64,000 bases of DNA from Deinococcales bacterium. Its GTDB lineage: Bacteria > Deinococcota > Deinococci > Deinococcales > JAAFIG01. The notes beneath the pieces were generated by a model. The model saw only the letters and a list, made by a program, of their open reading frames with translations, was not told the DNA's origin and did not search any database. Numbering within the stretch: position 1 is the stretch's first letter; each line of letters starts with the position of its first letter. The position numbers and the translations under genes are program-made. The stretch lies in NCBI GenBank assembly GCA_031414595.1, contig JANNVX010000098.1, forward strand, positions 64,001 through 128,000. Direction: 5' to 3'. Shown piece by piece: positions 3,045 to 29,646 of the stretch.

Positions 3045-3398
3045 GTGAACCAATACCTAAATGTCTTTATCATGTTCCTTGTCGCGGCAGGCATCGGTGT
3101 GCTTGCCCTGATTGTTGGGGCAGTCCTCGGACCTAAAAAACCTTCTCGAGCCAAAAACATGAGTTATGAAAGTGGTAATGATCCCATCGGTAGCGCTCGA
3201 GAACGCTTCCCAGTCCATTTTTACTTAGTAGCGATGCTCTTTATTATTTTTGACATCGAAACCGCATTCTTTTACCCCTTGGCAGTTGCCTACAATAAAC
3301 TCGGGCTATTTGCCTTTTATGAAGCCCTAGCCTTTGTTTTCTTGGTCGGTATTGGGTACTTTTATATCCTTAAAAAAGGCATTCTGGACTGGAAATAA
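3045..3398 (+). CDS. nuoA: NADH-quinone oxidoreductase subunit A
   Basis: [21 protein letters not shown] motifs; GTG start after GGAGG. Confidence 0.95.
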
Positions 3399-3453
3399 AT
3401 CAGCTTTGAGTTATCAGCTTTGGGCTTTGAGGCAACAAAACTTAGGAGTAACA

Positions 3454-3993
3454 ATGTCAACCCTAAAAGACTTATTTGAAAAAGATGTCCAAGAACTCGA
3501 GAACGAGGGAATAGTTTTTGCGACCCTCGAGAAACTGGTGGCTTGGGGACGCAGCAATTCTATGTGGCCCATGACCTTTGGGCTTGCTTGCTGCGCCATT
3601 GAAATGATGGCATCCACCGATGCCCGCAACGACCTTGCACGGTTTGGCTCGGAAGTATTTCGGGCTTCGCCGCGTCAGTCTGATGTTTTAATTGTGGCTG
3701 GGCGTTTAAGTAAAAAAATGGCACCCGTGATGCGCCGAGTGTATGACCAAATGCCCGACCCTAAATGGGTGATTTCAATGGGCGCATGTGCCTCGAGCGG
3801 CGGCATGTTCAACAATTACGCGATTGTCCAGAACGTAGATAGTGTTGTTCCCGTGGATATTTTTGTCCCCGGCTGTCCGCCCCGCCCCGAAGGACTGATT
3901 TACGCCGTGATGCAACTGCAAAAGAAAGTACGCGGCGAAGCCATGGATGATTTTGGTACGCCCCTACCAATGGTGGAAGCATGGACAAGATAA
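3454..3993 (+). CDS. nuoB: NADH-quinone oxidoreductase subunit B
   Basis: [35 protein letters not shown]. Confidence 0.97.
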
Positions 3994-3996
3994 ATA

Positions 3997-4063
3997 ACCG
4001 TAGGGGCGAGGTTGTCTTGACCCTAAACATGCACCTAGCGGGCAGGGTCGCACGCCTCGCCCT
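3997..4063. repeat. GTAG-type REP-like element (nuoB/nuoC)
   Basis: CGTAGGGGCGAG...CTCGCCC; ~66 nt copy nearly identical to 24014-24079. Confidence 0.8.
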
Positions 4064-4078
4064 CTTTGGAGGACACCC

Positions 4079-4684
4079 ATGAGTTCATTAGTTACCGCCC
4101 TCGAGAAAGCTGGCTTGCGCGAATACCCAATTCTCGAGGGGAAAATCAAAACGGTTGTCGCAGCACTGGACACCTTCAAAGCCTTTTTATTTGAATGTAA
4201 AGCTGTCGGTTTTAGTCTCTGTGCCGATCTCATGGGCGTGGATTACCTCGAGTACACCGAATTTATGCCCGAGCGCTTTGCTGTTATTTATAACTTGTTA
4301 AATGCTAAAAATGGTGAACGGATTCTGGTTAAAGTTTATGTCCCAGATGCTATAAAAATCCCAACCGTGACCGATATTTGGCGCACTGCCGAGTACCATG
4401 AACGCGAAGTGTATGACTTACTGGGGATTGAATTCTCCGACCATCCAGATATGCGTAAAATCCTCACCCCAGAAGATTTAGACGGGCATCCGCTTCGTAA
4501 GGATTTCCCGCTTGGCGAAACGCCAACGCTTTTTCGTGAAGGGCGCTTCTTAGACCCTTCGGCTTTTCGGGCTGGCTTAAGTGGTAAGGATACTGGTTTA
4601 TCGGGTTGGCGCGGTGGGTCACGCATAGACTCGAGCCTGATTCCGAAGTTGCCAACCGCAATTCCAGTATCAAAGGAGAAATGA
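4079..4684 (+). CDS. nuoC: NADH-quinone oxidoreductase subunit C
   Basis: EREVYDLLGIEF.DHPDMRKIL, GHPLRKDFPL. Confidence 0.95.
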   Translation: MSSLVTALEKAGLREYPILEGKIKTVVAALDTFKAFLFECKAVGFSLCADLMGVDYLEYTEFMPERFAVIYNLLNAKNGERILVKVYVPDAIKIPTVTDIWRTAEYHEREVYDLLGIEFSDHPDMRKILTPEDLDGHPLRKDFPLGETPTLFREGRFLDPSAFRAGLSGKDTGLSGWRGGSRIDSSLIPKLPTAIPVSKEK

Positions 4685-4687
4685 GTT

Positions 4688-5959
4688 ATGGCAAAAGTCA
4701 AAGAAAAACCAGTCATGCCAAAGCTCGAGACTCGAGCCGAAGTGATTATTCCCCAAGAACGCTCAGAATTAACGGGTGGGTCTGGTTTGCTGCACACCGA
4801 AATCATGCGCCTCAACGTTGGACCGCAACATCCAAGCACCCACGGTGTACTGAGAGTGGTAGTGGACATGGAGGGCGAATACGTCAAGCGGGTCGAACCG
4901 CACATTGGCTATTTGCATACTGGCTTTGAAAAAACCATGGAGAACCGCACCTACGCCCAAAACTTTACTTTTGCACCACGTATGGATTACTTGCACGGCT
5001 TTGGGTATGAGTTAGCCTACGCGCTGCCAGTTGAGCAACTTGTGGGCGCAGAAGTCCCAGACCGCGCTCGAGAAATCCGTGTGCTGCTGGTTGAACTCAA
5101 CCGCATCTCGAGCCACTTGGTTTTTTTAGGCACGGGCTTACTAGATTTAGGCGCTTTAACCCCATTTTTTTATACATTTGTCGAACGCGAAGCGATTTTA
5201 GATATTTTTGAAGCGATTGGCGGACAGCGCTTGCACCAAGGCTACTTTCGGGTTGGCGGCGTTGCCAAAGATACCCCAGACGGCTTTGAGGGCATGGTCA
5301 AAAAATTCCTTGATACGTTTGATGCCAAAGTAGACGAATACGAAAAACTCTTCAAAACTAATCCGATTTTTCTCGAGCGTACTCAGAACACTGGTATCAT
5401 GTCCGAAGCTGTGGCGCTGGATTTAGGCATCACTGGACCAAATCTTCGGGCTTCGGGTGTGGCGCTTGACCACCGCAAAACCACGCCGTATTCGGGTTAC
5501 GAACAATACGACTTTGATGTTCCACTTGGTACACATGGCGATAGCTTTGACCGCTTTGTGGTGCGTGTCCAAGAAATGCGTGAATCGGCAAAAATTTGTC
5601 GCCAAGCACTCTCGAGATTAAAGCCCGGCGCAATCCAAGACCCAAATCGCAAAATCAGCTTGCCGCCCCGCGAAGAACTCGAGACCAGTATGGAAGCTGT
5701 GATTCACCACTTTAAGCTGGTGACAGAAGGTTATCATCCGCCTAAAGGCGAGGCGTATGTGCCAACTGAATCGGCTCGAGGTGAACTGGGGTGTTATATC
5801 GTTTCTGACGGCGGCAGTATGCCCTACCGCATTCATTTCCGCGCCCCAAGCTTTGTCAATTTGCAAGCCTTGCCCGTAATTGGCATTGGTGGATTATTCG
5901 CCGACCTGATTACTGTAATCGCCAGCCTTGACCCCGTGATGGGCGACGTAGACAGGTGA
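4688..5959 (+). CDS. nuoD: NADH-quinone oxidoreductase subunit D
   Basis: [33 protein letters not shown]-terminus. Confidence 0.97.
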
Positions 5960-5963
5960 GAAT

Positions 5964-6686
5964 ATGAGTCAAACTGCCGAACAAGAATACATGGAACGAC
6001 TGACCCAAGCAGTCAACAACAGTGTGGATTTTAATCAAGAATTTAAGTCTGACTTACACCAATTCAAACTCGAGCAGTTTTACGAAATGTTTGCTCAAGA
6101 AATTCTGTTTTACAAACCTATTGAACTCTTAAACGGTCAAGTCTGGGGCGAAGGAATTCTCGTTACTTACGACGCTGACGACATGAAAAAACTGCATCAC
6201 TCGAGAATACTGATACCAGACCAGCCTGTCGAACTGATTAACGGACATTTTTTCAAAACACCAATATCCACACAAGCCCAAACCAATGCAGCCATTGATT
6301 TAAGCACCGAAATGCTTAGAGGATTAGGTGACAATGCTATTTCTCGAGGCGGTTATGACATCGAACTTGGTGCAAAATTTGTGGTTTCCCCAGAAATTGC
6401 CATTCTACAAGCCCCTCGGGAACGATACAATCATCGCAACGCCACTCTCGGCGACGTGTACTTATTGGTCGAAGTTCTAGCCGAAAAACCTAAGTATTGG
6501 GATTACAAACTTTCAGCCTATGCTCGAGCTTGCGTACCAGAACTCTGGGTGCTGAATACAAGCACCCAACAACTTGAGATTTATGCAGACTCAGACGGTG
6601 TGGAATTCTTGCATCAAGTCAAGCTCGAAAAAGGACAACCAGCCACACCACTCGAGTTTCCAGATGTGCAAATCAGGTGGTGGTGA
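5964..6686 (+). CDS. Uma2 (DUF820) family endonuclease-like protein, atypical
   Basis: VELING, LLVEV, K...YARACVPELWVLN; N-terminal motif appears duplicated. Confidence 0.75.
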   Translation: MSQTAEQEYMERLTQAVNNSVDFNQEFKSDLHQFKLEQFYEMFAQEILFYKPIELLNGQVWGEGILVTYDADDMKKLHHSRILIPDQPVELINGHFFKTPISTQAQTNAAIDLSTEMLRGLGDNAISRGGYDIELGAKFVVSPEIAILQAPRERYNHRNATLGDVYLLVEVLAEKPKYWDYKLSAYARACVPELWVLNTSTQQLEIYADSDGVEFLHQVKLEKGQPATPLEFPDVQIRWW

Positions 6687-7252
6687 TGACCCAAATTTTA
6701 GAACGCCCACAAGACGCTAATTACCCACATCGGTTTAGTGTTCTCGAGTTTGAACGCTTGTTTGAAGCAGGGGTTTTTGGTGAAGAAATTCAAGTTGAAT
6801 TGCTAGACGGAGAAATTTTTGTTATGCCAGAAATGGGAGATGACCACGCCGACAGTCTGACACGACTGACCAAACAACTGATTCGTAAACTCGGTGATTA
6901 CGTCGAGCTTGCCCCACAAATTCCGTTGGATTTACCCGAAGGTGAAACCCGTCCACTGCCCGATTTTATTGTGATTGACATTAAAAAATATGGTCGGCGT
7001 AAACCGATTCCTAGCGATGTGTTCTTCTTAATCGAAATTTCGGATACTACACTGCATAAAGACCGCAACCGCAAAGCCCAAATTTATGCCCGAAACGGGA
7101 TTCTCGAGTATTGGATTGTGAACTTAAAAAACAAGCAACTCGAGGTCTATCGCAACCCAGAAAATGGTGTTTACCCAAAACCACAAATTTTGCAAATCGG
7201 TCAAGCAATTGCGCCCTTGGCATTCCCAGATGTTTTAATTGAGTGGTGGTGA
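6686..7252 (+). CDS. Uma2 (DUF820) family endonuclease
   Basis: HRFSV, VELLDGEI, PLPD, LIEISDTTL.KDR..KAQIYARNGILEYWIVNL. Confidence 0.9.
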   Translation: MTQILERPQDANYPHRFSVLEFERLFEAGVFGEEIQVELLDGEIFVMPEMGDDHADSLTRLTKQLIRKLGDYVELAPQIPLDLPEGETRPLPDFIVIDIKKYGRRKPIPSDVFFLIEISDTTLHKDRNRKAQIYARNGILEYWIVNLKNKQLEVYRNPENGVYPKPQILQIGQAIAPLAFPDVLIEWW

Positions 7253-7262
7253 AAGGAGATTT

Positions 7263-7502
7263 ATGAGTGACGACGAAAAGAAATTACTTCATGCGATTCA
7301 AGATTTACACTTTGCTGTCAGGGATTTAAGTCAGGGATTTGCTCCCGCCAGACCTCGAGACGAAAGTGATTTACGTTACCAATCAAATGAATCTTTTGGT
7401 TCTGGGTTTAATTTACTACATAAAGCATTTGAAGTGATAATAAAAAATCAGGAAAAACAAATCGAATTACTCGAGACTATTGCTCGAAATAGTCGTAGAT
7501 AG
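7263..7502 (+). CDS. Hypothetical protein (79 aa)
   Basis: ORF with AGGAGA RBS between Uma2 and nuoE. Confidence 0.55.
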   Translation: MSDDEKKLLHAIQDLHFAVRDLSQGFAPARPRDESDLRYQSNESFGSGFNLLHKAFEVIIKNQEKQIELLETIARNSRR

Positions 7503-7518
7503 TTTTGGAGGTTCAACC

Positions 7519-8100
7519 GTGAGTTTCTTTACCAATCAACAAGCCCTTGTTCAAGACATTCTCTCGAGATACCCAAAAGGACGCGAACGCAGCGCGGTGA
7601 TGCCGCTCCTGCGCGAAGTCCAGAATGCCGAAGGCTATGTCTCGGATGCGGCTTGTGCTGAAATCGCGCAAATCATCGAAAGTACCGCCACCGAAGTCAA
7701 ATCAGTCATGAGCTTCTACAGCACCTACTCGAGCAGCCCGACAGGAAAGTATCACCTTCAAGTCTGCATGACCTTATCCTGTGCGTTGCAAGGTTCTGAC
7801 CAAATGTGGGATTACTTGTGCGAAACCCTTGATATTGGCGTGGGCGATGTTACCCCAGATGGCTTATTCAGCGTCCAGAAAGTCGAATGTCTAGGCTCAT
7901 GTGGCACTGCGCCCCTGATGCAAGTTTCGGATAGCGGTTATTACGAATGCCTGACCAAAAAACGCTTGGATGCCCTGCTTGCTGATTTCAAGGCTCGAGG
8001 CGATGGCAGTATGCCCGAATCGGATACCCAAGCCCCAGTCTTTATTCAAAGAAATGGTGATGTGGTGAGCCAAATCACTGCCGAAGGAGCAAGTTTATGA
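7519..8100 (+). CDS. nuoE: NADH-quinone oxidoreductase subunit E
   Basis: [23 protein letters not shown] 2Fe-2S motifs; GTG start after GGAGG. Confidence 0.95.
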
Positions 8101-9455
8101 CTTTAGTTGCTGAAGCACCTGTAGCTGAAAAACCAAAAAGCATTACCAGTGGACTCGACCCGCGTTTCAAACCACGATTGTACGAACACGTTGGGCAAAA
8201 TAATTCGTGGACGCTCGAGTACGCCCTGCGTCATGGCGCTTACGAAGGTGCAAAACGTGCCTTGGCTGGAACACCAGAATCAGTCCAAGATGAAGTCAAA
8301 AAATCAGGTTTGCGCGGACGTGGCGGCGCTGGTTTCCCGACGGGCTTAAAGTGGTCATTTATGCCCAAAGAAGATGGCAAACCCCATTATTTGGTCTGCA
8401 ACGCCGATGAATCCGAACCCGGCACGTATAAAGACCGTTACTTGATGGAAGCCGACCCACACCAGTTACTTGAGGGAATGCTTGTGGGAATGCACGCCAT
8501 CCGCGCCAATGTTGGTTACATTTATATTCGCGGCGAGTACATTCTTGGCGCAAATCGCTTAAACGCTGCGATAGCCGAGGCTCGAGCCGCAGGGATTTTT
8601 GGCGAAAATGCGCTTGGTTTTGGTAAAAGTATGGAAGTTTTTGTACATCGCGGGGCTGGGGCATACATTTGCGGTGAAGAAACCGCGTTGATGAATTCAC
8701 TCGAGGGGCTACGAGCCAATCCGCGCCTGAAGCCACCGTTTCCTGCTCAAGCTGGAATTTTTGGAATGCCAAGCACTGTTAATAATGTGGTCAGTATCGC
8801 TTCGGCTGCCCTAATATTGCGCCACGGTGCGGACTGGTTCTCGAGCATGGGGACAGAAAAAAGCAAAGGGAATTTCTTGTTTCATATTTCCGGACCCGTT
8901 AAGCGTCCGGGCGTGTACGAATTGCCACTTGGCACAACTTACCGCGAGATTATTTACACTTGGGGCGGTGGACCAACGGAAAGCATCAAAGCCTTTAACC
9001 CCGGTGGCTCGAGTACCCCGATGCTTCCATTCACTGATGAGATTCTGGACATGCCAGCCGATTACGAAAATTGCGCTGCCAAAGGAACTTTTCTTGGTAC
9101 GGGCGGAATTATCTTGATTCCCCAAAATTGCGATATTGTCAATATGATGTACAACTATGTTCGTTTTTATGGTCACGAATCTTGTGGCAAATGCACCCCA
9201 TGCCGTGAAGGAATTGGTACTTGGATGAATCGTATCTTCCAAAAACTGATTTCTGGTAAAGGCGACCCGAACGATGTAAAAATTCTCGAGGATTTATTTG
9301 GCAACATCAAAGGCAAATCGTTTTGTTTGCTTGCCGATTCGTGCATTATGCCAGTGCAGAGTGCCATGAAACTTTTCCGTGATGAATTTGAATATATTGC
9401 TCAGCATGGTAAACCGATATATACAGGTTACGGCAATCGCTGGAAAGACGAATAG
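8097..9455 (+). CDS. nuoF: NADH-quinone oxidoreductase subunit F
   Basis: [50 protein letters not shown]. Confidence 0.97.
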
Positions 9456-9570
9456 ATTCTCGAGAAGGAGGTGAACCCGTGATGCAAGATTATTTATTTC
9501 AAAAGCTGCCACGCTCGAGCTTTGGGCGGCATTGCGGGTTTAGCTCCAAGTATTCTCGAATTGAATTGAA

Positions 9571-10545
9571 GTGGCGGATATGAAAGAAATTATTGTCCAC
9601 CAAGTCAACATTGCCCATTATCGGTTGCTCGAGCTAACGCTGTTGGCTGACCAAGCCAAACCGTTTTATGATTGGATTGAAAAAACTGCTCGACAAATCA
9701 CAGGCTCGCACTTAACCCTGAATGAATTGCTGCTGACTTGCACAAAAGAACAACTCAAAAGTATTGTGATGGCTTGTTATACCCAAACGACGCAACAAAA
9801 ACCATTTCTGTTTGATGGTGTTGGGCGAGCCTACCCCCATAAAAAAGCCTGTTTCTATTTTTTTGCATGGATGATACGAGATGCACCTCAACAACGACTC
9901 GCGCCACTTATCTCGAGAATGCAAAAACTTGTCAGACTCGAGAAAATAGTAATTGAAACAGATAGTCTAATCGAACTGATTTTCGAGTACAGAACGAATG
10001 TCAAGTCTTTTGAATGGCAAGCTGTTCGTGAGGTCGTGATTGACCGTTTAGAAGGCTCGAGGCGAAGTATCAGTGGTAACAAAATAGAAGCCGATGTGCG
10101 AATTGGTTTAGGAATTGCCTTGCAGTGGTATTACGCGGTTCATGGCAATTATGGTCAGTTCAAAGAAATTCAAATTGCTGATAAGCAAATCAAAGTCGGC
10201 AATCACACCATAGATGTATCTGCGAATTTAATTTTAGAGAACAAACAAAGTAAACAAATTTTTATTCCCGTGAAAACCCGAGAAACCGAAGGCGGCGGGC
10301 ATTCACACTTATTCACTCGAGACATCATGAATGCCATAACAGATATTCAATCAGCCAATTGTTTTATTGTGGCGGTCATCATTGCCGAAAATTGGTCAGT
10401 TCATGAACTCGAGACAATCAAAAATCAAATAGATTTGGTACTGTATTTCAACATGAACCCCAATGTTTTTACGGGTTTTGACCAAGCCTCACAAATACAA
10501 TTTAATCAACTTATCGAAAAAATTCTGCAAGGACAAGCATCATGA
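9571..10545 (+). CDS. Putative type II restriction endonuclease
   Basis: Overlaps the following MTase (ATGA); PD-(D/E)xK-like residues (IDVS...IPVKTRE); inferred from context. Confidence 0.5.
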   Translation: MADMKEIIVHQVNIAHYRLLELTLLADQAKPFYDWIEKTARQITGSHLTLNELLLTCTKEQLKSIVMACYTQTTQQKPFLFDGVGRAYPHKKACFYFFAWMIRDAPQQRLAPLISRMQKLVRLEKIVIETDSLIELIFEYRTNVKSFEWQAVREVVIDRLEGSRRSISGNKIEADVRIGLGIALQWYYAVHGNYGQFKEIQIADKQIKVGNHTIDVSANLILENKQSKQIFIPVKTRETEGGGHSHLFTRDIMNAITDIQSANCFIVAVIIAENWSVHELETIKNQIDLVLYFNMNPNVFTGFDQASQIQFNQLIEKILQGQAS

Positions 10546-11456: not shown

Positions 11457-11483
11457 GTTTAAGATAACTCGAGAAGGAAAACG

Positions 11484-12729: not shown

Positions 12730-12737
12730 GGCAACCA

Positions 12738-20926: not shown

Positions 20927-20959
20927 TAGAATGATTTTGGAGGTGAATGAAATGAGTGT
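20901..20959 (+). repeat. nuoH 3'-end/RBS repeat, copy 1
   Basis: CTGCTCGAGCCAATGCTGGCGACTGATAGAATGATTTTGGAGGTGAATGAAATGAGTGT. Confidence 0.9.
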
Positions 20960-21577: not shown

Positions 21578-21580
21578 CCT

Positions 21581-21639
21581 CTGCTCGAGCTAAAGCTGGT
21601 AGCTGATAGAATGATTTTGGAGGTGAATGAAATGAGTGT
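21581..21639 (+). repeat. nuoH 3'-end/RBS repeat, copy 2
   Basis: CTGCTCGAGCTAAAGCTGGTAGCTGATAGAATGATTTTGGAGGTGAATGAAATGAGTGT. Confidence 0.9.
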
Positions 21640-21853
21640 CGGACAAATAATTACACAACTTAAAAGTCTCTCGAGAAATGATTTGGTCTTAATCGTGAAT
21701 GAGGCACAGAAAACACTTCATGAACTTGACCCGATTGCATCCAATCATCTTGACTTGTCCAAAATGCCAAAGAACCCTGAAATTTGGTCGCCTTGGGATG
21801 AATACCAAGCCGCTGATGATATGGAAAGATTACTCGCTGAGGGAAAATTGTGA
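21632..21853 (+). CDS. Small partner protein of retropepsin pair 4
   Basis: MSVGQI...EIWSPWD; GTGA overlap with the protease. Confidence 0.7.
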   Translation: MSVGQIITQLKSLSRNDLVLIVNEAQKTLHELDPIASNHLDLSKMPKNPEIWSPWDEYQAADDMERLLAEGKL

Positions 21854-22272
21854 GTGATGTAGAGCGTTTTTCTTACATAATTAAGGGCGAAATGGGTAAA
21901 ATGCCGATTATTCCTATTCGTTTCTTAGATAATAATAAAGCCATTGAAGAACTAGCGCTTTTAGATTCTGGTGCAGCCGTGAGTATTTTACCGTACAGAA
22001 TGGGTTTAGCATTAAAGCAGGATTGGAATAATCCAAAATTATATGAGGCTAGGCTAGGTGGCGTGTTTCGGCATTTAACTGGAAAATTTGTGAAAGTGTC
22101 ATTGCAAATTGGGCAACTCGAGCCTCGAGATGTTGCATTCGTGTGGATGGAATCTGAAAATGTGCCGCTTATTCTTGGTAATGGTAATTTCTTTCAGATT
22201 TTTGATGTGTGTTTTTCACGCTTAAACAATGAAATTTCGGTGCGTTTAGCTCGAGCCAAAGCTGGTAGCTGA
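21850..22272 (+). CDS. Retropepsin-like aspartyl protease, pair 4
   Basis: ALLDSGA; ILGNGNFFQIFDVCF; C-terminus ARAKAGS supplied by the nuoH-like repeat. Confidence 0.8.
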   Translation: MSDVERFSYIIKGEMGKMPIIPIRFLDNNKAIEELALLDSGAAVSILPYRMGLALKQDWNNPKLYEARLGGVFRHLTGKFVKVSLQIGQLEPRDVAFVWMESENVPLILGNGNFFQIFDVCFSRLNNEISVRLARAKAGS

Positions 22273-22278
22273 TAGAAT
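22249..22278 (+). repeat. nuoH 3'-end repeat, copy 3
   Basis: GCTCGAGCCAAAGCTGGTAGCTGATAGAAT. Confidence 0.85.
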
Positions 22279-22296
22279 AAAATTGGGGGAGTATTT

Positions 22297-22731
22297 ATGC
22301 CAAAAAGTAAAAATCCGTATAGCAAAGAGGTAAAAGAGAAGGCAATAAGAAAAGTTGCAGAAGGTTTGTCTTACGCTGAAGTAGGACGCGAAATGGGGAT
22401 TCCATATTCGACTATTAGTAATTGGTCTAAGGAAGGTGGTATTGAAAGTAAACATAGTAATGGCAAGGGGCAGGCTTTGTACAATATGATGCGGGTCTGT
22501 ACAACCTTGTTTCAAACAATAAGTCAAATCCATAGCTATGCTTATGGCACTTTTCAAAACAGTAGGCACTATAAACATCTACGAGACGCTGCAAAAAAGG
22601 GCTTACTTGAAAGAAGAATAGATGGATTAGATGAGTCATTTAAATTAACAAAACTTGGCAAAGAATGGTTAAAAGCTAATGAAAATACTTTTGAAGAAAA
22701 ATATCAAGAATTAATTTTAAAGCGAGCGTAA
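22297..22731 (+). CDS. Helix-turn-helix protein (transposase-like N-terminal HTH)
   Basis: YSKEVKEKAI...SYAEVGREMGIPYSTISNW. Confidence 0.65.
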   Translation: MPKSKNPYSKEVKEKAIRKVAEGLSYAEVGREMGIPYSTISNWSKEGGIESKHSNGKGQALYNMMRVCTTLFQTISQIHSYAYGTFQNSRHYKHLRDAAKKGLLERRIDGLDESFKLTKLGKEWLKANENTFEEKYQELILKRA

Positions 22732-22769
22732 TTTGACTCTTAATTGCTGTATTATCGGAGGTTCTTAAA

Positions 22770-23444
22770 ATGGGTGTTCTCGAGATCGCCAAAGGGATGG
22801 GTACAACCCTTGGCAAATTGTTCCAAAAGCCTTTAACCGTTTCCTATCCAGAAACGCCAATTCGTTTGCAACCGCGTTTTCGTGGTCGGCATATCCTGAC
22901 TAAGCACGCCAACGGCTTAGAAAAGTGCATTGGCTGTTCGCTCTGCGCTGCCGCCTGTCCAGCCTATGCCATCTATGTCGAAGCCGCCGAGAATACCTCG
23001 ATCCAGACCGTCTCGGCGGGGGAAAGGTACGCTTCGGTATACGAAATCAATATGCTGCGCTGTATTTTTTGCGGCATGTGCGAAGAGGCTTGCCCGACAG
23101 GTGCAATTATTTTAGGTACAGACTTTGAACTCGCCGATTATAAATCTCGAGATTTTGTGTATGGCAAGGAAGACATGATGGTCGGTGTGGTCGGTACAAA
23201 GCCCCAACGCCGCGAAGCCGAACACAAGAATAAACCCGTCAAACTTGGCTACAACATCACCCCTCGAGCCGAAGTTGCCGAGGCACTCGAGGCGCTAAAG
23301 AACCCCAATAAGCGAGTCTCGAGTCTGCCAGCCTCGGGTGTGGGTATAGGGGTTGTATCTCGAGATACTGGGGACGACACAGGGCGCTCGAGTCCAAGCC
23401 GAATTAACGATGCACCAATTGCCAAGGGTATAGTGAAACGATGA
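22770..23444 (+). CDS. nuoI: NADH-quinone oxidoreductase subunit I
   Basis: [12 protein letters not shown] and [12 protein letters not shown] 4Fe-4S motifs. Confidence 0.96.
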
Positions 23445-24004
23445 TTGTCTTTGTTTTGCTGTCTTTACTCGCCGTTGCTGGAGCGCTTGGCACGATTTTA
23501 TGGAAGAACGCGCTTTACAGTGCGCTTTCTTTGGTCGGGACGCTCCTAGCCTTGGCGTGTATTTTCGTGACCCTCGAGGCGCAGTTTTTGGCCAGTGTCC
23601 AAGTGATTGTCTACGCGGGTGCAATCATGGTGCTGTTCTTGTTTGTGATTATGCTCCTGAACGCCCAGTATCCAGACCAGCACGAAGACCCACTGCCGTG
23701 GCTTGCACCTGTAGCCATTGCGGGTGGGATTGTCCTCGCGGGGGCGCTTGCCTACACTGCCTTTTTGTTCAAAGCCCCCAAAGCCCTCGAGACGGCAGCC
23801 AAAGCCTTGCAGGGTGGTACACCGGGTCCTGTGGGTGAAACGCTGTTCACCAAGTTCTTACTGCCATTTGAAGCGGTGTCGTTGCTGCTGATTATCGCTG
23901 TGGTTGGTGCGGTGGCTTTGGTCAAACGCGAACCCGAAGGCAAACAAGTTAGGGAAACCCTCGAGGAACGGGCTACCCACACCCCCGAAGAGGTCGTCGC
24001 ATGA
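23441..24004 (+). CDS. nuoJ: NADH-quinone oxidoreductase subunit J
   Basis: [20 protein letters not shown]. Confidence 0.96.
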
Positions 24005-24013
24005 CCCAAAATC

Positions 24014-24082
24014 ACCGTAGGGGCGAGACTGTCTTGACCCTAAACACGCACCTAGCGGGCAGGGTCGCTTGCCTCGCCCAAC
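24014..24082. repeat. GTAG-type REP-like element (nuoJ/nuoK)
   Basis: ACCGTAGGGGCGAG...CTCGCCCAAC; near copy of 3997-4063. Confidence 0.8.
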
Positions 24083-24094
24083 TGAGAGGACATC

Positions 24095-24397
24095 ATGGTT
24101 GAAACCCCGTATTACATTGCCCTCGCGGGTATTTTATTTTCGATAGGCGCAGTCGGTTTTCTGATGCGCCGCAGTGTGATTCAAATGTTCTTGTGCGTCG
24201 AACTAATGCTGAATTCTGCCAATCTGGTGCTGGTGGCGTTCGCTCGAGCATGGGGGAATCTCGAGGCGCAGACAGCCGTGTTTATCATCCTGACTCTTGC
24301 GGCGGCTGAAGTGGCAATTGGCTTAGGGATTATCGTGGCGATTTTTAGGAAACGAGTCTCCACGAATGTGGATGAACTCTCGAGTTTGAAGGGATAA
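24095..24397 (+). CDS. nuoK: NADH-quinone oxidoreductase subunit K
   Basis: CVELMLNSANL, AAAEVAIGL. Confidence 0.96.
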   Translation: MVETPYYIALAGILFSIGAVGFLMRRSVIQMFLCVELMLNSANLVLVAFARAWGNLEAQTAVFIILTLAAAEVAIGLGIIVAIFRKRVSTNVDELSSLKG

Positions 24398-24400
24398 ATT

Positions 24401-26362
24401 GTGGAGAATATCTTTTACTTAATGATTGTGCCACCGCTTCTTGGTTGGTTGCTTTTAATTGCCTTTGGTAAGCGGTTGCCCGAACCAACTTCGGGGTATG
24501 TGGCGAGTGGCATGATTTTGGTCTCGTTTGTGATGGCAGTGCTTGGGTTTTTCGGGACAATGAATCTCGAGGAAGGTAAGCAGTGGCACGTTAAACTCTG
24601 GGAATTCCTACCATTTATTGGTGGCGAGGGTAAATCCCTGTACATGGGTTTTGCACTCGACCAACTCTCGAGTCTGATGACCCTGATTATCACGGGTGTT
24701 GGCTTTTTGATTCATGTCTTTGCAATTGGCTATATGCACGGGGACACGGGCTTCTCGAGGTTCTTTGCGTACCTGAATTTCTTTGTGGCGTTTATGCTGA
24801 TTCTGGTGTTGGCGGATTCCTTGCCCGTACTGTTTATCGGTTGGGAAGGCGTGGGCGTTGCCAGTTTCCTGCTCATCGGTTTTTGGTACAAGGATTTTAA
24901 TAACTCGAACGCTGCCCGTAAAGCCTTTATCGTCAACCGAGTTGGCGATGCGTTTTTGATGCTGGGGATGTTCTTGTTGTTTAAAGAATTCGGCACATTA
25001 AATCTGCATGAACTCAAAGAATCCTTTGGTTCGGTCAATGTGCCACTGGTCGGCGAAGTCTCGAGGAATGCCGTGGCGTATGGTGCGCCCGGTCTCGAGT
25101 TAGCCTGTGTGTTCTTGCTGCTCGGCGCGGCGGGTAAAAGCGCTCAATTGCCGCTTTCAACTTGGCTACCCGATGCGATGGCGGGTCCAACCCCTGTTTC
25201 TGCCCTGATTCACGCGGCGACGATGGTTACGGCGGGTGTCTACCTTGTGGCGCGTAATTCCGAGTTGTTTGCTCATGCCCCTGTCGCTTCTGGCTGGGTG
25301 GCGTGGGTTGGTGCTGCGACGGCTGCTTACGGGGCGGTGTGTGCCATTGCTCAGACCGATATTAAAAAGATTTTGGCGTACAGCACCGTCTCGCAACTTG
25401 GGTTTATGTTTGTGGCAGTGGGTTGTGGTGCGTACTGGGTCGGGATTTTCCATGTGCTAACCCATGCGTTCTTCAAAGCCTTGTTGTTTCTGGCTTCGGG
25501 TAGCGTCATTCATGCACTGGGCGGCGAACAGGACGTTCGTAAAATGGGCGGTTTACGCAAGGTCTTACCGACCACGCATTTGGTTTCTTTTATTGGCACA
25601 TTAGCCATTATGGGTGTGCCGCTTTTGGCTGGGTTTTTCTCTAAAGATGCGATTCTCGAGAGTACCTTAATGTCGCCTTTCGTGGGTGGAGAAGCTGGTA
25701 ATGTTCTGCTTTTTGCCGTAATGGTGATTGTGGCAACCATGACTGCCGCCTACATGTGGCGTTGGTATGTGCTGGTTTTTGTTGGCGAGTATCGAGGTCA
25801 CGCCCATCCGCATGAATCTGGGGCAGTCATGACTTTACCTCTGATGGTGTTGGCGGTTCTCAGCGTGATTGGTGGCTTTATCGGCTTACCGCACTTCTTG
25901 GGTAAAAATGTCAATTTAATCGAACCGTATCTCGAGAAAGTTGCTCATAATGCTAAGGGCATGACCAAACTCGAGGGAATTGTCGAATTTGTCCCACTGA
26001 TTTTTAGTGTCTTGGCGGTACTTGTCGGGTATTTGATTGCCAATTACTTCTTTAGGCGCGATGGGGCTAACGTTATGGCAGAAATTCCAAACAGCTTTGG
26101 CAATGCTTCAAAAAATGCCTTGTACTTGGATAAAGTCTATGATTTTGTGCTTGGCAATCCGTCTCGAGTGGCGGCGCAGTTCTTAGGGATTGTGGATAAA
26201 AGCGGAGTTCAAGCCAGCGCGCACTTTCTGGGGGAACAAGTCGGGGAAGCTGGCGCGAGTCTATCCATTTGGCAAGCTGGTTTTGCCCGTGGTTACGCGG
26301 TTGCCATTCTCATCGGCACAGTCGGTTTGATTGGTTTTTTAATCCTGCGGGGGTTCGCATGA
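24401..26362 (+). CDS. nuoL: NADH-quinone oxidoreductase subunit L
   Basis: GWEGVG, GKSAQLPL.TWLPDAMAGPTPVSALIHAATMVTAG. Confidence 0.97.
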   Translation: MENIFYLMIVPPLLGWLLLIAFGKRLPEPTSGYVASGMILVSFVMAVLGFFGTMNLEEGKQWHVKLWEFLPFIGGEGKSLYMGFALDQLSSLMTLIITGVGFLIHVFAIGYMHGDTGFSRFFAYLNFFVAFMLILVLADSLPVLFIGWEGVGVASFLLIGFWYKDFNNSNAARKAFIVNRVGDAFLMLGMFLLFKEFGTLNLHELKESFGSVNVPLVGEVSRNAVAYGAPGLELACVFLLLGAAGKSAQLPLSTWLPDAMAGPTPVSALIHAATMVTAGVYLVARNSELFAHAPVASGWVAWVGAATAAYGAVCAIAQTDIKKILAYSTVSQLGFMFVAVGCGAYWVGIFHVLTHAFFKALLFLASGSVIHALGGEQDVRKMGGLRKVLPTTHLVSFIGTLAIMGVPLLAGFFSKDAILESTLMSPFVGGEAGNVLLFAVMVIVATMTAAYMWRWYVLVFVGEYRGHAHPHESGAVMTLPLMVLAVLSVIGGFIGLPHFLGKNVNLIEPYLEKVAHNAKGMTKLEGIVEFVPLIFSVLAVLVGYLIANYFFRRDGANVMAEIPNSFGNASKNALYLDKVYDFVLGNPSRVAAQFLGIVDKSGVQASAHFLGEQVGEAGASLSIWQAGFARGYAVAILIGTVGLIGFLILRGFA

Positions 26363-26375
26363 TTCATTATGGTTT

Positions 26376-26510
26376 CGTAGGGGCGACGGAGCTTCAAGCG
26401 ACGGGGGTCGCCCTTGATGTGCAAAAGCGCAATGCTTTGGCGGGTTGGGCGAGGCATACCTGTCTTGACCCAATACACGCACCTCACGGGCAGGGTCGCT
26501 CGCCCCTACG
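26376..26510. repeat. REP doublet / REPIN-like element (nuoL/nuoM)
   Basis: Terminal inverted repeats CGTAGGGGCGA...TCGCCCCTACG; internal TGTCTTGACCC..ACACGCACCT..CGGGCAGGGTCGC shared with the other copies. Confidence 0.85.
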
Positions 26511-26528
26511 GTTGGATGGGAGATTGGC

Positions 26529-28052
26529 ATGAATTGGGTTTTAATTGCGTTTATTTTCTTGCCGCTTCTGGCTGCCTTGCTGTCGTTACTCGTTCCAAAG
26601 GCGGCTCGAGGGCGTTTTGCAGTGCTGACTGGCTTGGTTCATTTGGCGGTGGGTGTCTACATTTGGTTGGGTGGCACAAAACTCGAGGAGTTCAGTACCA
26701 TCACCGATTGGCTGCCCGGGCTGGGTGTGAAATTCGCGGTCAGCACCGATGGTGTATCCTTGCTGCTCTCACTCGTGACTGCCCTGATGGTTCCGCTTGG
26801 GCTGTACTACCTTTCTTCTCGAGACGATGGCAAGTTATCGGCTTTTTATCCGCTTGCTCTCGCTATGCAGACTGGTATTTTAGGTATTTATGCTGCCAGA
26901 GACTTAATTTTATTCTATGTGTTCTTTGAAGCCACACTGATTCCAAGTTTGTTCTTGCTTGGGCGTTATGGTCGGGCTTCTCGAGTAAAAGCGCTGACCA
27001 CAATGGCGTTGTACACGGTTTTTGGCGGTTTATTGATGTTGGTCAGCATCATCAGTGCCAAGTTACTGACTGGTTCACCGACTTTTCTGCTCGAGGATTT
27101 GTTGCGTGGTTTGCGCTTGCCAATTGCTGATGTGACGCTTTTGTTTATCACTTTTAATCCTAAAACCATGATGTTTATTGGGTTTTTACTTGCCTTGGCG
27201 GTCAAAACCCCGCTTTTTCCGATGCACGCTTGGATGCCAGAATTTCACGCTCAAAATCATCCGAGTGGTGTAGCTGACCTGATGGGAACGCTCTATAAGG
27301 TTGGCGGCTATGCCTTGTTTCGTTTTGCCGTGCCAATGTTCCCCGATGTTGTGGCAAATGCCCAAGGTTGGCTGATGTTCTTAGCCGCCTTTACCGCCAT
27401 TTATGGCGCATGGGTGGCTTTTGCCCAAACCGATTTTAAGCGCTTACTGGCTTACGCAGGTATTTCCCACATGGGTTTGGTGGCATTGGGTGTCTTTAGC
27501 CTTCATCCTGCGGGTGCGGCTGGCGCAATGTTGCTGCTTGCCTTTCAGGGTATCTACTCGAGTGGCTTGTTCTTGGTGGTTGGGATGCTCGAGCGTCGCT
27601 TTATTGTGTTAGAAGGTGGCGATGAAAGCAAAGAAAAAGCCTTGGATCGCGCCCTCGAGATTGGGCGAGTGCGAGGACTTGCCGCAAGCGCTCCAGCCTT
27701 TGCGGGTGTGGCGCTGCTGCTCTGGTTTGCCAGTATTGGTGTTCCGGGTTTGGCAGGTTTTATTGGTGAGTACAGCATTTTACTTGGTGCATACCAAGCC
27801 AATCCGTGGATGGCGGCGATTGCGGTCACAACCGTGATTGCCAGTGCTGCCTTTGCTTTAACTGCCTACCAAAAAACATGGTACGAAGAAGCCACACACA
27901 GCGTAGCCGACCTCTCGAGACGTGAATGGACAGTGCTTATCCCAATCGTTGCCCTTGTGGTCTTGTTTGGTGTCTACAGCGCTCCAGCCCTCGAGTTGGT
28001 CAAACCCGTGGTGGCACAATTGTATGGAATTGCATTGGAGGCAAATAAATGA
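26529..28052 (+). CDS. nuoM: NADH-quinone oxidoreductase subunit M
   Basis: LFYVFFEATLIP, KTPLFPMHAWMP, DFKRLLAY. Confidence 0.96.
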   Translation: MNWVLIAFIFLPLLAALLSLLVPKAARGRFAVLTGLVHLAVGVYIWLGGTKLEEFSTITDWLPGLGVKFAVSTDGVSLLLSLVTALMVPLGLYYLSSRDDGKLSAFYPLALAMQTGILGIYAARDLILFYVFFEATLIPSLFLLGRYGRASRVKALTTMALYTVFGGLLMLVSIISAKLLTGSPTFLLEDLLRGLRLPIADVTLLFITFNPKTMMFIGFLLALAVKTPLFPMHAWMPEFHAQNHPSGVADLMGTLYKVGGYALFRFAVPMFPDVVANAQGWLMFLAAFTAIYGAWVAFAQTDFKRLLAYAGISHMGLVALGVFSLHPAGAAGAMLLLAFQGIYSSGLFLVVGMLERRFIVLEGGDESKEKALDRALEIGRVRGLAASAPAFAGVALLLWFASIGVPGLAGFIGEYSILLGAYQANPWMAAIAVTTVIASAAFALTAYQKTWYEEATHSVADLSRREWTVLIPIVALVVLFGVYSAPALELVKPVVAQLYGIALEANK

Positions 28053-28068
28053 CCCCCGTTTACGAATT

Positions 28069-28180
28069 CGTAGGGGCGAACCTTGTGTTCGCCCTGACCC
28101 TGCCTTGTGCGTACAGGGCGATGACAAGCGACCCAAGCCCGAAGGTGCTGTTTTTGCGGTCAAGAAGCATCGCCCCTACG
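28069..28180. repeat. REP doublet / REPIN-like element (nuoM/nuoN)
   Basis: CGTAGGGGCGAACCTTGTGTTCGCCC ... TCGCCCCTACG. Confidence 0.85.
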
Positions 28181-28215
28181 GTTGGTTTGGTGTTGGTTGT
28201 GACCGAGGTGTGTTT

Positions 28216-29646
28216 ATGACCCCGCCTGATGTCAATGTATTGTCGTTAATGCCTGTACTGATGGTCTTGTTCACGGCTGTTTTCGCCACGGTGTTGCCCT
28301 TTTACACCACCCGCCGTGGAATAGCTGGATTATCAGCCATGGGGCTGGTGGTGGCACTTGGTTGGACGGTTGCCTTGTGGAATCAGAACCTCTCGAGTTT
28401 TAGCGGTTCGTATGTAGCCGATAATTTTGCACTGGCTTTTAGCGTGATTCTGATTCTGGCAGGGATTGCAGCGATTGCCTCGAGTGCCGACGGAATTGTA
28501 CGTGGTGGTTCTATGCCCGCCGAGTTCTACGCGATTATGCTTTACGCCATTTGCGGCACAATGCTCTTGGTTCATGCTCGGGATTTAATTGTGATGCTGA
28601 TTGGTTTTGAAGTGATGAGCCTTGGTGTTTATATTTTGTCCAGTTTCCAAGACCGCAAGCAGTCCGAAGAGGCTGGTTTGAAGTATTTCCTCTTGGGTTC
28701 TTTTGCCAGTGCGATTTTGATTTTTGGGATTGCTTTGGTCTTTGGTGGCACGGGTTCATTTGCCCTCGAGACGATCAGAACAACCCTTGCTGGTAATCCA
28801 ACCAATACACCGATTGTGGCGGTTGGGGCGCTTTTTATTCTGATTGGTTTTGGGTTTAAGGTTGCCTTTGCGCCGTTTCATCAGTGGACTCCGGATGTGT
28901 ATTCTGGTGCGCCGATTGCCGTTACCCAGTACATGAGTGTCGGTGTCAAAGCCGCCGCATTTGCGGGAATGCTGAAAATCTTTGGTGAGGCACTGCCAAG
29001 CGTGGCGGGTTGGCAAACTCCAGCCCAGTTTTTAATTGCTTTAACCCTAATGATTGGTAATTTAGCCGCCCTTAAACAAACTAATTTTAAGCGAATGTTA
29101 GCGTATTCGAGTATTGCCCATGCGGGGTACATCGGTTTGGCGGTACTGTCCGCTCCTGCACAGGCTTTTCCAGCCGCACTTTTTTATATGGCAGCGTACG
29201 CCCTGATGAACGCTGGGGCTTTTGCGGTCTTAAACAGTATTTCACCGTCCGATGATGGGGTCAAAGTGGACAGTCTGGCTGGGCTTGGCTCGAGAAATCC
29301 GTTCTTGGCGGGGATGCTGGCACTATTTTTAATTGCCTTGGCTGGTATTCCGCCCTTGGCTGGTTTTATGGGCAAATACCTGATTTTTGCTGGGGCTGCC
29401 CAAGCTGGTTTTTATGGCTTAGTGATTCTGGCTGCCTTAACCAGTGCAGTCAGTTTGTATTATTATTTGCGTCCGGTTGCTTTAATGTGGTTTGTTGAAC
29501 CCAAAGGTTTTGCCCTACCAGACCTTTCAAGCGGTATGTCTCGAGCCGTGATGGTTGTCTGTGCGCTTGGTGTGGTGCTGCTTGGGGTTGTGCCGAGTCT
29601 GGTGACAAATTTAGTGGCTAACATCGGCATTGTTGCCTCGAGATAA
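28216..29646 (+). CDS. nuoN: NADH-quinone oxidoreductase subunit N
   Basis: EAGLKYFLLG, FKVAFAPFHQWTPDVYSGAP, KRMLAYSSIAHAGY; start moved to MTPPD. Confidence 0.96.
   Translation: MTPPDVNVLSLMPVLMVLFTAVFATVLPFYTTRRGIAGLSAMGLVVALGWTVALWNQNLSSFSGSYVADNFALAFSVILILAGIAAIASSADGIVRGGSMPAEFYAIMLYAICGTMLLVHARDLIVMLIGFEVMSLGVYILSSFQDRKQSEEAGLKYFLLGSFASAILIFGIALVFGGTGSFALETIRTTLAGNPTNTPIVAVGALFILIGFGFKVAFAPFHQWTPDVYSGAPIAVTQYMSVGVKAAAFAGMLKIFGEALPSVAGWQTPAQFLIALTLMIGNLAALKQTNFKRMLAYSSIAHAGYIGLAVLSAPAQAFPAALFYMAAYALMNAGAFAVLNSISPSDDGVKVDSLAGLGSRNPFLAGMLALFLIALAGIPPLAGFMGKYLIFAGAAQAGFYGLVILAALTSAVSLYYYLRPVALMWFVEPKGFALPDLSSGMSRAVMVVCALGVVLLGVVPSLVTNLVANIGIVASR

Follow-up and report, generated by a model that had tools for sequence, protein, structure and literature searches.

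Four gaps of the Complex I operon as probable accretion sites for defence, toxin-antitoxin and other small genes in an uncultured Deinococcales family

Based on a 64,000-nt stretch of the genome of a Deinococcales bacterium (contig JANNVX010000098.1, positions 64,001 to 128,000; G000:C98:64001-128000), hereafter the window, we have analysed a Complex I (nuo) operon in which 24 additional open reading frames (ORFs) are lodged between intact subunit genes. The explanation that we consider probable, while leaving real room for others, is that the four gaps without translational coupling (nuoD/E, F/G, G/H and H/I) are long-lived accretion sites of the single Complex I operon, at work through general recombination. 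The occupants would be small genes on the nuo strand without promoters of their own, comprising type II toxin-antitoxin (TA), restriction-modification (R-M), Uma2 and retropepsin-like candidate defence genes and one lineage-specific lipoprotein gene. The arrays would be as old as the family, with single cassettes being gained, lost and exchanged. The 5' leader of each cassette would be the last 25-100 nt of the preceding gene, including its stop codon and ribosome-binding site, and because cassettes bring the end of the preceding gene along as a leader, the arrays would be punctuated by short direct repeats. These repeats, together with the nuo gene ends, could supply the homology for RecA-type, partly illegitimate recombination with other chromosome copies or with DNA of relatives. 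Such recombination, read from its footprints, would delete, duplicate and swap cassettes with no dedicated integrase taking part, and selection would retain only those inserts that neither terminate nor uncouple the operon. Competence and polyploidy are assumed here from cultured Deinococcota.

The window is part of a 205,723-nt contig (C98) of a 4.49-Mb metagenome-assembled genome (MAG; G000) with 120 contigs, 94% completeness and 47.2% GC. The uncultured Deinococcales family to which G000 belongs, with the working name f1, is represented in our comparison by 19 species genomes, and nuo gaps were compared over 16 f1 loci. Outgroups were 12 genomes from four Deinococcales families outside f1, together with 32 additional loci that are mostly of Deinococcaceae. 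The closest relative, G005, has about 94% DNA identity with G000; the nuo DNA of G001 is 88-92% identical, and G002 belongs to the same genus as G000. Cargo genes were identified with Pfam, NCBIfam, PADLOC, PHROGs and PDB sequences, and the assembly was checked against the Logan per-run contigs of four runs (X1-X4).

All 14 Complex I subunits have full-length Pfam matches, which follow one another as nuoA-N from 3030 to 29646 on the + strand, and the whole genome contains a single nuoG match. The operon genes and the signals at its two ends are:

2968-2996, + strand: promoter-like site 5' of nuoA, TTGTTA-17-TATAAT (consensus match alone)
3030-3398, + strand: nuoA (Pfam, as for all nuo genes below)
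3334-3993, + strand: nuoB
4079-4684, + strand: nuoC
4688-5959, + strand: nuoD
7480-8100, + strand: nuoE
8097-9455, + strand: nuoF
16034-18406, + strand: nuoG
19802-20926, + strand: nuoH
22770-23444, + strand: nuoI
23441-24004, + strand: nuoJ
24095-24397, + strand: nuoK
24401-26362, + strand: nuoL
26529-28052, + strand: nuoM
27922-29646, + strand: nuoN
29661-29691, + strand: the sole strong intrinsic-terminator-like hairpin, just 3' of nuoN (14-bp stem with 6 GC pairs, T-run)

Genes nuoA-D form a compact block (3030-5959; spacings of -62, 88 and 6 nt), as do nuoI-N (22770-29646), and nuoE and nuoF overlap (7480-9455) and are separated in no relative. The 24 additional ORFs, all on the + strand, are confined to the four gaps, with three at D/E, 12 at F/G, four at G/H and five at H/I. 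Adjacent ORFs often overlap by 4-10 nt (10542/10545, 11769/11772, 12044/12047, 14196/14199, 16034/16037, 19305/19308, 21850/21853). The GC content of the cargo is about 41%, versus about 50% for the nuo genes and 47.2% for the genome. Terminator-like sites within the region are all weak and as frequent as in shuffled sequence (22 versus 22.2 expected), and promoter-like sites number 24 versus 27.7 expected. The cargo would most likely be carried on the nuo transcript. A preliminary description of the window had recorded intact nuo genes in order, some 24 extra genes with this distribution, their common strand and frequent overlaps, and no obvious internal terminator; all these observations are reproduced here.

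The cargo, gap by gap, consists of the following features, with the methods that identified them:

5964-6686, + strand: Uma2 family protein (PADLOC PDC-S03), the first D/E cassette (Pfam, PADLOC)
6677-7252, + strand: second Uma2 family protein (PDC-S03; Pfam, PADLOC)
7239-7502, + strand: 87-aa ORF, a doubtful gene (no family match)
9455-9572, + strand: long, imperfect hairpin directly after nuoF that serves as leader of the R-M cassette (DNA folding)
9571-10545, + strand: type II restriction endonuclease (PADLOC PDLC03531, 7.9e-87)
10542-11456, + strand: N6/N4 DNA methyltransferase (PADLOC PDLC03387, 1e-93)
11545-12496, + strand: 75-aa ORF, VapB-like 92-aa ORF and VapC (PIN) toxin (Pfam, NCBIfam)
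12535-13142, + strand: 64-aa ORF and retropepsin-like protease (134 aa), a PDC-M52B-type module (Pfam, PADLOC)
13204-14199, + strand: second DNA methyltransferase (Pfam, NCBIfam, PADLOC)
14196-14837, + strand: 213-aa protein, overlapping the second methyltransferase gene (ORF call)
14893-15527, + strand: 70-aa ORF and retropepsin-like protease (163-aa ORF) (Pfam, PADLOC)
15669-16037, + strand: 122-aa ORF overlapping the nuoG start, with a 35%-identical homologue at the same place in G003
18407-19048, + strand: 213-aa lipoprotein with signal peptide and lipobox Cys (sequence features, family comparison)
19123-19308, + strand: HicB (UPF0150-like, 1.4e-3, under the cut-off)
19305-19496, + strand: HicA (Pfam 6.7e-9, above the cut-off)
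19540-19761, + strand: Phd-like orphan antitoxin (weak match, 7.6e-4, under the cut-off)
20913-21164 and 21095-21577, + strand: H/I module 1, small ORF and retropepsin-like protease (Pfam, PADLOC)
21611-21853 and 21850-22272, + strand: H/I module 2, small ORF and retropepsin-like protease of 140 aa (Pfam, PADLOC)
22297-22731, + strand: 144-aa helix-turn-helix (HTH) protein (HTH_Tnp_1, 3.5e-8)

The F/G ORFs extend from 9571 to 16037, the G/H ORFs from 18407 to 19761 and the H/I ORFs from 20913 to 22731. An extra overlapping ORF at F/G (15421-15669) is mere read-through of a repeat.

The same four gaps are used across the family. Among the f1 loci, D/E ranges from 202 to 1927 nt, F/G from 113 to 6581, G/H from 2 to 1726 and H/I from 175 to 1846; the remaining nine nuo gaps are shorter than 200 nt in every f1 genome in which both flanks are present. 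The gaps that are never used (E/F, I/J, K/L, M/N, A/B) lie between overlapping or nearly touching genes. Every f1 relative examined carries gene-sized inserts at one or more of the four gaps, except G002, which is nearly compact and retains only a Uma2 fragment, and G013, a single contig of 5.1 Mb, has inserts at all four. In the outgroup nuo loci, gaps are at most the size of a single gene. Of the junction ORFs in f1, 131 of 144 lie on the nuo strand; the 13 antisense ones are short (47-179 aa), two of them overlap sense-strand homologues, and a Pfam scan of nine from relatives gave no match. Cargo families keep to particular gaps, as their copy numbers in the f1 nuo loci show:

Uma2 family: 11 copies at D/E, 7 at F/G
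protease family: 5 copies at F/G, 7 at H/I
HicB and Phd-like families: G/H only
lipoprotein family: G/H only, 10 copies in 9 genomes

Between close relatives the content varies, as it does in integrons. Homology between G001 and G000 ends at or within about 30 nt past the stops of nuoD, nuoF and nuoG, and restarts 4-13 nt before the starts of nuoE, nuoG and nuoI and 18 nt inside nuoH; after nuoH it continues through the first small ORF, to 21094. G005 lacks the R-M cassette (9456-11470) and carries two additional cassettes, delimited by the F/G repeat described below, between VapC and the next protease module, so that the differences are cassette-precise. The idea raised at the outset, that all relatives might hold the same cargo, thus fits only a part of it: cargo differs in G001 and G005, and another part is family-old at the same gaps.

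The cassettes are set apart by direct repeats of 25-65 nt, of three kinds, none of which was found elsewhere in G000. Two kinds are copies of nuo gene ends, at G/H and at H/I (R_HI); the third (R_FG) occurs four times at F/G:

18364-18405 (original) and 19078-19119 (copy), + strand: 3' end of nuoG, 42 nt including a Shine-Dalgarno sequence; the copy is the leader of hicB
20901-20968, + strand: R_HI original, the last 25 nt of nuoH and about 40 nt of leader
21581-21648 and 22247-22314, + strand: R_HI copies, one after each protease module
12477-12535, + strand: R_FG copy 1, without a CTCGAG hexamer (repeat search)
13135-13187, + strand: R_FG copy 2 (double depth in Logan contigs)
14835-14899, + strand: R_FG copy 3 (repeat search)
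15508-15572, + strand: R_FG copy 4 (98% identical to copy 2)

The repeats also reach into the proteins. The R_HI copy at 22247-22314 encodes the C-terminus of the 140-aa protease (…ARAKAGS), which mirrors the end of nuoH (…ARANAGD). R_FG, with the core CATGAAGCCCAAGCTCGAGCAGAAAGCCAAA, gives a stop codon to unrelated upstream genes, and provides the PIN protein and the 163-aa protease with a common C-terminus (…GEA) that also occurs in a 131-aa protein of G001. In the relatives, R_FG is present twice in G001 around a Uma2 gene, twice in G007 around a protease module, and four times in G005. Copies of the nuoG or nuoH 3' end after cassettes recur in G013 (39 nt), G011 (60 nt) and G016 (33 nt). 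The R-M cassette lies between 11-nt direct repeats CTCGAGAAGGA (9460-9470 and 11468-11478). The earlier remark that several blocks are bounded by duplicated gene ends can therefore be made specific, with the nuoG end present twice, the nuoH end three times and a third repeat four times at F/G.

Two recombination footprints bear on how the cassettes move. In the case of the first D/E cassette, the Uma2 gene 5964-6686 has a synonymous divergence (dS) from G003 of only 0.157, while nuoD, nuoE and nuoF stand at 0.76, 0.61 and 0.85. In a sliding window, the identity between G000 and G003 climbs from about 85% to 94-98% at 80-130 nt ahead of the nuoD stop and keeps that level as far as the cassette extends, at whose end homology ceases; the exchanged piece would therefore comprise the upstream gene end plus the cassette. 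To judge from this tract, one cassette together with the last ~100 nt of nuoD has recently been exchanged between species (the G003 lineage), which favours homologous or illegitimate recombination and fits the earlier proposal that conserved nuo flanks act as recombination arms. At G/H, the copy of the nuoG end (19081-19119) matches its counterparts in G003 and G005, in which hicB directly follows nuoG, with 97.4% identity, and the nuoG end of G000 itself with only 90-92%. The two copies would thus come from different alleles, and the lipoprotein gene would have been inserted between nuoG and hicB by recombination between alleles. A foreign tract in nuoG beside the lipoprotein gene was also considered and is unsupported, the last full window being 96% identical to G005 and G001.

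These footprints must be weighed against an old, frozen arrangement, in which the ancestor of the family was already loaded, all differences reflect differential loss and nothing moves any longer. Part of the evidence points this way. VapBC, HicAB, proteases and lipoprotein stand at the same gaps across genera, and the arrangement is therefore partly family-old; divergence keeps pace with the flanks, as VapB is 72% identical between G000 and G018 (nuoG 71%) and HicB 75% identical between G000 and G013 (nuoG 76%). One clade of H/I proteases spans two genera (support 99/99), the lone Uma2 fragment of G002 looks like a loss, and the cargo carries the CTCGAG signature of the family at native density. 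A frozen array would, however, hardly explain the Uma2 gene 5964-6686 with a dS five-fold under that of its flanks, a nuoG-end copy from a different allele, or an R_FG common to species with unrelated cassettes. Moreover, the two extra proteases of G000, one at F/G and one at H/I, are sisters (support 92/92), which implies movement between gaps. We therefore regard a fully frozen arrangement as unlikely.

The preliminary description had called the locus an integron-like cassette array with no integrase in view. The second half stands: no match to PF00589 (tyrosine recombinase) was found on the 205,723-nt contig, and no recombinase in the rest of the window. Elsewhere in G000 there are five tyrosine recombinases, which score 30.5-63.8 bits against a TIGR02249 cut-off of 265, and none is of the integron type. 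The first half does not hold. Eight repeat-bearing boundary stretches and the spacer 11455-11548, folded as DNA (three of the stretches on both strands), form no hairpins (z between -0.87 and +0.76), and the boundaries show no consistent inverted repeats; only the leader 9455-9572 folds (z -3.66) among the boundary stretches folded. An integron was rejected on three counts: no IntI, unfolded boundaries, and a separate, unrelated repeat for each gap. An Rfam scan of 2000-31000 (E up to 0.1) gave no match and a tRNA/tmRNA scan of the whole window no gene, and hence there is no integration target of the tRNA type.

A true site-specific cassette system, analogous to the integron, would use the R sequences as the points of attachment for a recombinase whose gene lies in another part of the genome, with circular excision and re-insertion next to the upstream nuo gene. 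The sharp left edge of R_FG suits such a system, as does its presence, in four species, beside cassettes as unrelated as a protease module, R-M, Uma2 and VapBC, and its better conservation than that of the coding flanks. With the newest cassette perhaps adjoining the upstream gene, the layout also resembles that of tandem integration at the 3' end of a gene, and five tyrosine recombinases are at hand in G000. Yet the best of them reaches 63.8 of the 265 bits, the 205-kb contig carries none of them, three gaps carry three unrelated repeats that one enzyme would not recognise, the boundaries lack hairpin or inverted-repeat structure, and the duplication varies in length from genome to genome (25, 33, 39, 42 and 60 nt). 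We judge a site-specific system to be rather unlikely.

An assembly artefact, i.e., strain variants collapsed or contigs joined chimerically in the metagenome bin, was the refutation that the preliminary description itself had raised, and is not borne out. Logan contigs of the four runs cover 4500-24400 with no difference in the main pieces and reproduce every joint between nuo genes and cargo, with nuo and cargo pieces at equal depth in each run. They end only at exact repeats (5918-5947, 13135-13176, 15532-15549, 20930-20952 and 21603-21639), and the depth of the piece with the 42-nt repeat is roughly double that of the adjoining pieces. For X1 and X2, the first H/I protease cassette (approximately 20953-21602) is without a contig and without a recorded joint across it. 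An artefact could appeal to the 120 contigs of the MAG, to the breaks of relatives' contigs within their nuo loci and to contig loose ends at 5918, 9494, 12951 and 15280 in runs X1-X4, which lead to other continuations. These alternative continuations indicate that co-occurring relatives share the nuo gene ends and differ in cargo. Given the agreement of the Logan contigs, the separately assembled f1 relatives, which with the exception of G002 carry inserts at the same gaps, and the one-contig G013 with inserts at all four, a chimeric assembly is very unlikely, and we attach next to no probability to an artefact of any such kind.

The list of cargo in the preliminary description, with R-M, VapBC, HicBA, an orphan antitoxin, Uma2 and four protease modules, is largely upheld, except for its second R-M pair. 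At D/E, the two Uma2 proteins have E-values of 4e-12 and 2.5e-32. The ORF at 7239-7502 had no family match, no relative and no second copy in the genome. The first R-M pair at F/G is a type II system with adjacent endonuclease and methyltransferase genes that overlap by 4 nt. The second pair is unproven because the 213-aa partner of the methyltransferase 13204-14199, encoded at 14196-14837 and compared with Pfam, NCBIfam, PADLOC, PHROGs and PDB sequences, matches nothing. VapC matches PIN (1.3e-12) and TIGR00028 (8.1e-14, under the curated cut-off); the 92-aa ORF upstream overlaps its gene by 4 nt, as in a VapBC pair with a putative antitoxin. Orthologues of VapB and VapC stand together at F/G in G005 and G014, while G018 has the 92-aa VapB-like ORF and G011 the PIN gene, each without a match to its partner. 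HicB and HicA form a pair in the order hicB-hicA, which is also found in G013 and G018. The homologue of the Phd-like orphan in G001 is followed by a ParE toxin gene. The 144-aa protein 22297-22731 is 72% identical to a homologue that G006 carries in the corresponding position. As an IS3 insertion sequence it was rejected, with only an OrfA-like HTH, 22 bits for NF033516 against a cut-off of 160, and no catalytic domain. Likewise, no transposase catalytic domain and no terminal inverted repeats of an insertion sequence or transposon were found at the cargo array. Relatives add Mrr, ParE/RelB and AAA_21 with DUF4276 to the repertoire.

PADLOC assignments of REase_II, MTase_II, two PDC-S03 and four PDC-M52B between conserved nuo flanks give the locus the composition of a defence island or core-flanked hotspot. 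The four retropepsin-like proteases match PDC-M52B at 1e-18 to 1e-27 and each is preceded by an ORF of 64-83 aa; these four small ORFs match no PADLOC model, be it for PDC-M52 component A or any other. The catalytic Asp is present in 11 of 12 family sequences, and the full DSGA or DTGA motif likewise in 11 of 12. The gene 18407-19048, which had been counted among the cargo, is instead a conserved lipoprotein and no selfish element, its family occurring at G/H alone. Ratios of non-synonymous to synonymous divergence (dN/dS) are 0.07-0.21 for 11 shared cargo genes versus 0.03-0.09 for nuo genes; by this measure the cargo is functional and under purifying selection.

The R-M leader 9455-9572 deserves separate mention. 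As DNA it folds with -22.9 kcal/mol, a stability equalled by none of 200 shuffles. A Shine-Dalgarno sequence and a short ORF lie within it, and it is kept in G003. This hairpin may control expression of the restriction enzyme.

The habit is not limited to nuo; ccm, suf, P-II and pyrimidine-degradation operons of the family hold similar inserts, and nuo is the most extreme example of something that the whole family does. In G000, the ccm operon carries co-oriented Uma2, YefM and YoeB genes between ccmE and ccmF, with the Uma2 gene overlapping ccmE by 4 nt, and a P-II/aminotransferase operon holds a co-oriented VapBC pair. The location of the former is:

L083 (G000:C64:13900-24500), 4551-5621, - strand: ccm inserts (operon scan)

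No 3'-end duplication was found beside the ccm and P-II inserts. The protease family counts 22 copies in 12 of the 19 f1 genomes, of which 18 are in nuo F/G or H/I, three beside sufB/sufD-family genes and one in a dihydropyrimidine-dehydrogenase-like (pyrimidine-degradation) operon; one of the suf-linked copies lies within an array of at least 11 cargo ORFs. The suf operons L101 (G016:C207), L099 (G014:C338) and L102 (G009:C87) contain VapBC, ParE, proteases and unknown ORFs by sufB/sufD. In G014 and G016 the suf arrays have a common, recurring boundary motif of their own (…GAGTTTGCRTAATCTCGAGAA…), and tandem copies of a closely similar motif, CTCGAGAACTGGATAGAAAGAA, precede sufD in G000 (G000:C59:1-1825), where sufB and sufD are on separate contigs.

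This distribution could also suggest that the proteases and the lipoprotein are functional partners of their host operons, with a part in the assembly, regulation or quality control of respiratory iron-sulfur enzymes. All 22 protease copies are beside genes for iron-sulfur proteins or their assembly, the four copies of G000 are all in nuo, the DSGA catalytic motif is conserved (11 of 12), and the lipoprotein family is found at G/H alone in its nine genomes. Such partners would, however, be expected neither to match PDC-M52B, a family defined from defence islands in general, nor to be absent from seven of the 19 f1 genomes and, outside the family, from the compact operons, nor to sit amid R-M and TA genes with varying copy number and position. 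We consider a role as functional partners quite improbable.

Another feature of the family is the palindrome CTCGAG, whose abundance resembles that of the highly iterated palindrome HIP1 of cyanobacteria. The 4.49 Mb of G000 contain 23,235 copies, about 24 times the expectation from composition and on average one per 191 nt, without a flanking preference and nearly as dense in coding as in non-coding DNA. All f1 loci have 4.2-10.6 copies per kb versus 0-2.9 in other Deinococcales families, and within nuo the cargo has 5.6 per kb versus 6.0 for the nuo genes. At the level of listings and abstracts, we found no paper on a CTCGAG-rich genome and none that pairs the term 'highly iterated palindrome' with CTCGAG. 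The hexamer appears as an indel between otherwise homologous stretches: R_FG copy 1 (12490-12525) lacks exactly the hexamer that is present in copies 2 (13135-13170) and 4, and the leader at 11468 has CTCGAGAA where G005 (L096) has no counterpart. In the duplications of the nuoH and nuoG ends, the left edge is likewise at an (ancestral) CTCGAG site. Of 39 homology break points and repeat edges, which are non-independent, nine are within 5 nt of a CTCGAG versus 3.7 expected (p ~0.01), a statistically weak association; genome-wide, CTCGAG is 1.3-1.4 times denser around gene ends. Other palindromes are nearly absent from G000 (GGGCCC 0, TGCGCA 2, CGATCG 3, GACGTC 3, CGCGCG 3 and GGCGCC 3, with expectations of ~800-970), a scarcity that suggests long exposure to many restriction systems.

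Tentatively, and with considerable doubt, these elements may be combined into a recombinase-free counterpart of the integron. Portable leaders would serve both as translation signals and as patches of homology, and promoterless defence and TA cassettes could be shuffled by general recombination among uncoupled gaps in such essential operons as nuo, suf and ccm, within a polyploid, transformable cell. CTCGAG would offer frequent joints, and the dosage of defence would be tied to the expression of respiratory genes.

Two further features of the window stand apart from the cassettes. The first is a repetitive extragenic palindromic (REP)-like element within the nuo blocks, and the second a type I R-M operon:

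3992-4075, + strand: REP-like palindromic element of 84 nt in the B/C gap, with copies in J/K (24009-24092) and L/M (26460-26504) (repeat search)
37137-45023, - strand: type I R-M operon with hsdM (43449-45023), hsdS (41519-42730) and hsdR (37137-40232) (family search)

The REP-like element has the form GGGGCGAGG…CCTCGCCC with an insert of about 45 nt in the loop and 22 blastn matches in G000, and shorter hairpin forms occupy the matching gaps of G001, G003 and G007. It may act as an mRNA stabiliser or processing site. The type I operon has co-oriented intruders of its own, namely an HTH gene (40343-40732), an NYN-domain gene (40755-41372) and a gene with a Y1/IS200-like transposase domain (42764-43468), whose product could be the REP-associated transposase that belongs to the element in B/C, J/K and L/M.

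Several points weigh against accretion by general recombination as we have outlined it. The mechanism is read from footprints in the sequence, and patchy cargo could also reflect differential loss from a loaded ancestor rather than continuing gain. TA pairs usually bring their own autoregulated promoters, and a consensus scan could miss these. The ccm and P-II inserts show no 3'-end duplication, so that the leader rule does not hold everywhere. R_FG differs from the present nuoF 3' end and is 96-98% conserved between species versus 88-92% for nuo genes, a conservation that could reflect a selected function, e.g., a protein- or RNA-binding site or a recombinase site. Finally, the four Logan runs stem from one study and may include the source sample, and are thus not fully independent.

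In this operon, the foreign genes (24) outnumber the native ones (14) with all subunits intact; multi-subunit operons are normally seen as protected and compact. A core operon can thus long serve as a landing pad for selfish and defensive genes, and defence islands can exist within transcription units. The joints of Complex I that tolerate interruption are mapped as D/E, F/G, G/H and H/I, and never E/F, I/J, K/L or M/N, which is useful for engineering and for understanding the control of subunit stoichiometry. The arrays are a natural test case for the building and reshuffling of cassettes by ordinary recombination where an integrase is lacking. They also suggest that respiration and the expression of phage-defence and addiction modules may go hand in hand.

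At the level of listings and abstracts, we found no paper on repeat-delimited defence or TA arrays inside a Complex I operon, and the known systems each share only some of the features described here. Integrons, in the form of sedentary chromosomal integrons or clusters of attC sites lacking integrases (CALINs), likewise contain co-oriented, promoterless cassettes behind one promoter (the promoterlessness in f1 being a prediction), a recurring boundary sequence, and cargo that is rich in TA and defence genes and variable among relatives. Here, however, IntI and attI are missing, direct repeats of gene 3' ends take the place of folding attC palindromes, and four arrays with their own repeats lie between core operon genes.

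In the case of homology-facilitated illegitimate recombination, known from the naturally transformable Acinetobacter and Streptococcus, a one-sided anchor (here the upstream nuo end) combined with an illegitimate or short-homology joint inserts genes. By analogy, this process could leave duplicated 3' ends such as those in f1. Unrelated ORFs between cistrons have precedents as well. The nqo cluster of Paracoccus contains unidentified reading frames (URFs). The nuo operon of Rhodobacter capsulatus has urf genes, among them urf7 (PMC9036352). Cyanobacterial hoxEFUYH clusters are described as having a few interspersed ORFs, with cotranscription shown in Lyngbya, whose hox region also has a Uma2/DUF820 gene (PMC2674450). 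These cases share unrelated ORFs between Complex I or hydrogenase cistrons with f1, where cotranscription is likely, but their ORFs are few, mostly fixed and not of TA or defence type, and no repeat-delimited arrays are described.

Operon insertion was proposed, in the relevant passages of Price, Arkin and Alm (2006), as a way for new genes, ORFans in particular, to obtain a native promoter, with insertion within operons much rarer than addition at their ends (PMC1480536). By that measure f1 differs, with 24 genes inside one operon and a habit that spans the whole family. Surveys of E. coli and Acinetobacter report, in the portions cited, defence hotspots flanked by core genes (PMC10121019, PMC11723918). 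They resemble the f1 sites in their variable sets of R-M, TA and candidate defence genes at fixed positions and in exchange via the flanks, whereas the f1 sites are inside one transcription unit, with inserts on the operon strand and no mobile-element genes. Core-flanked defence hotspots and hitch-hiking on operons are therefore known; what is unusual in f1 is the organization of such cargo into repeat-delimited arrays within a core operon.

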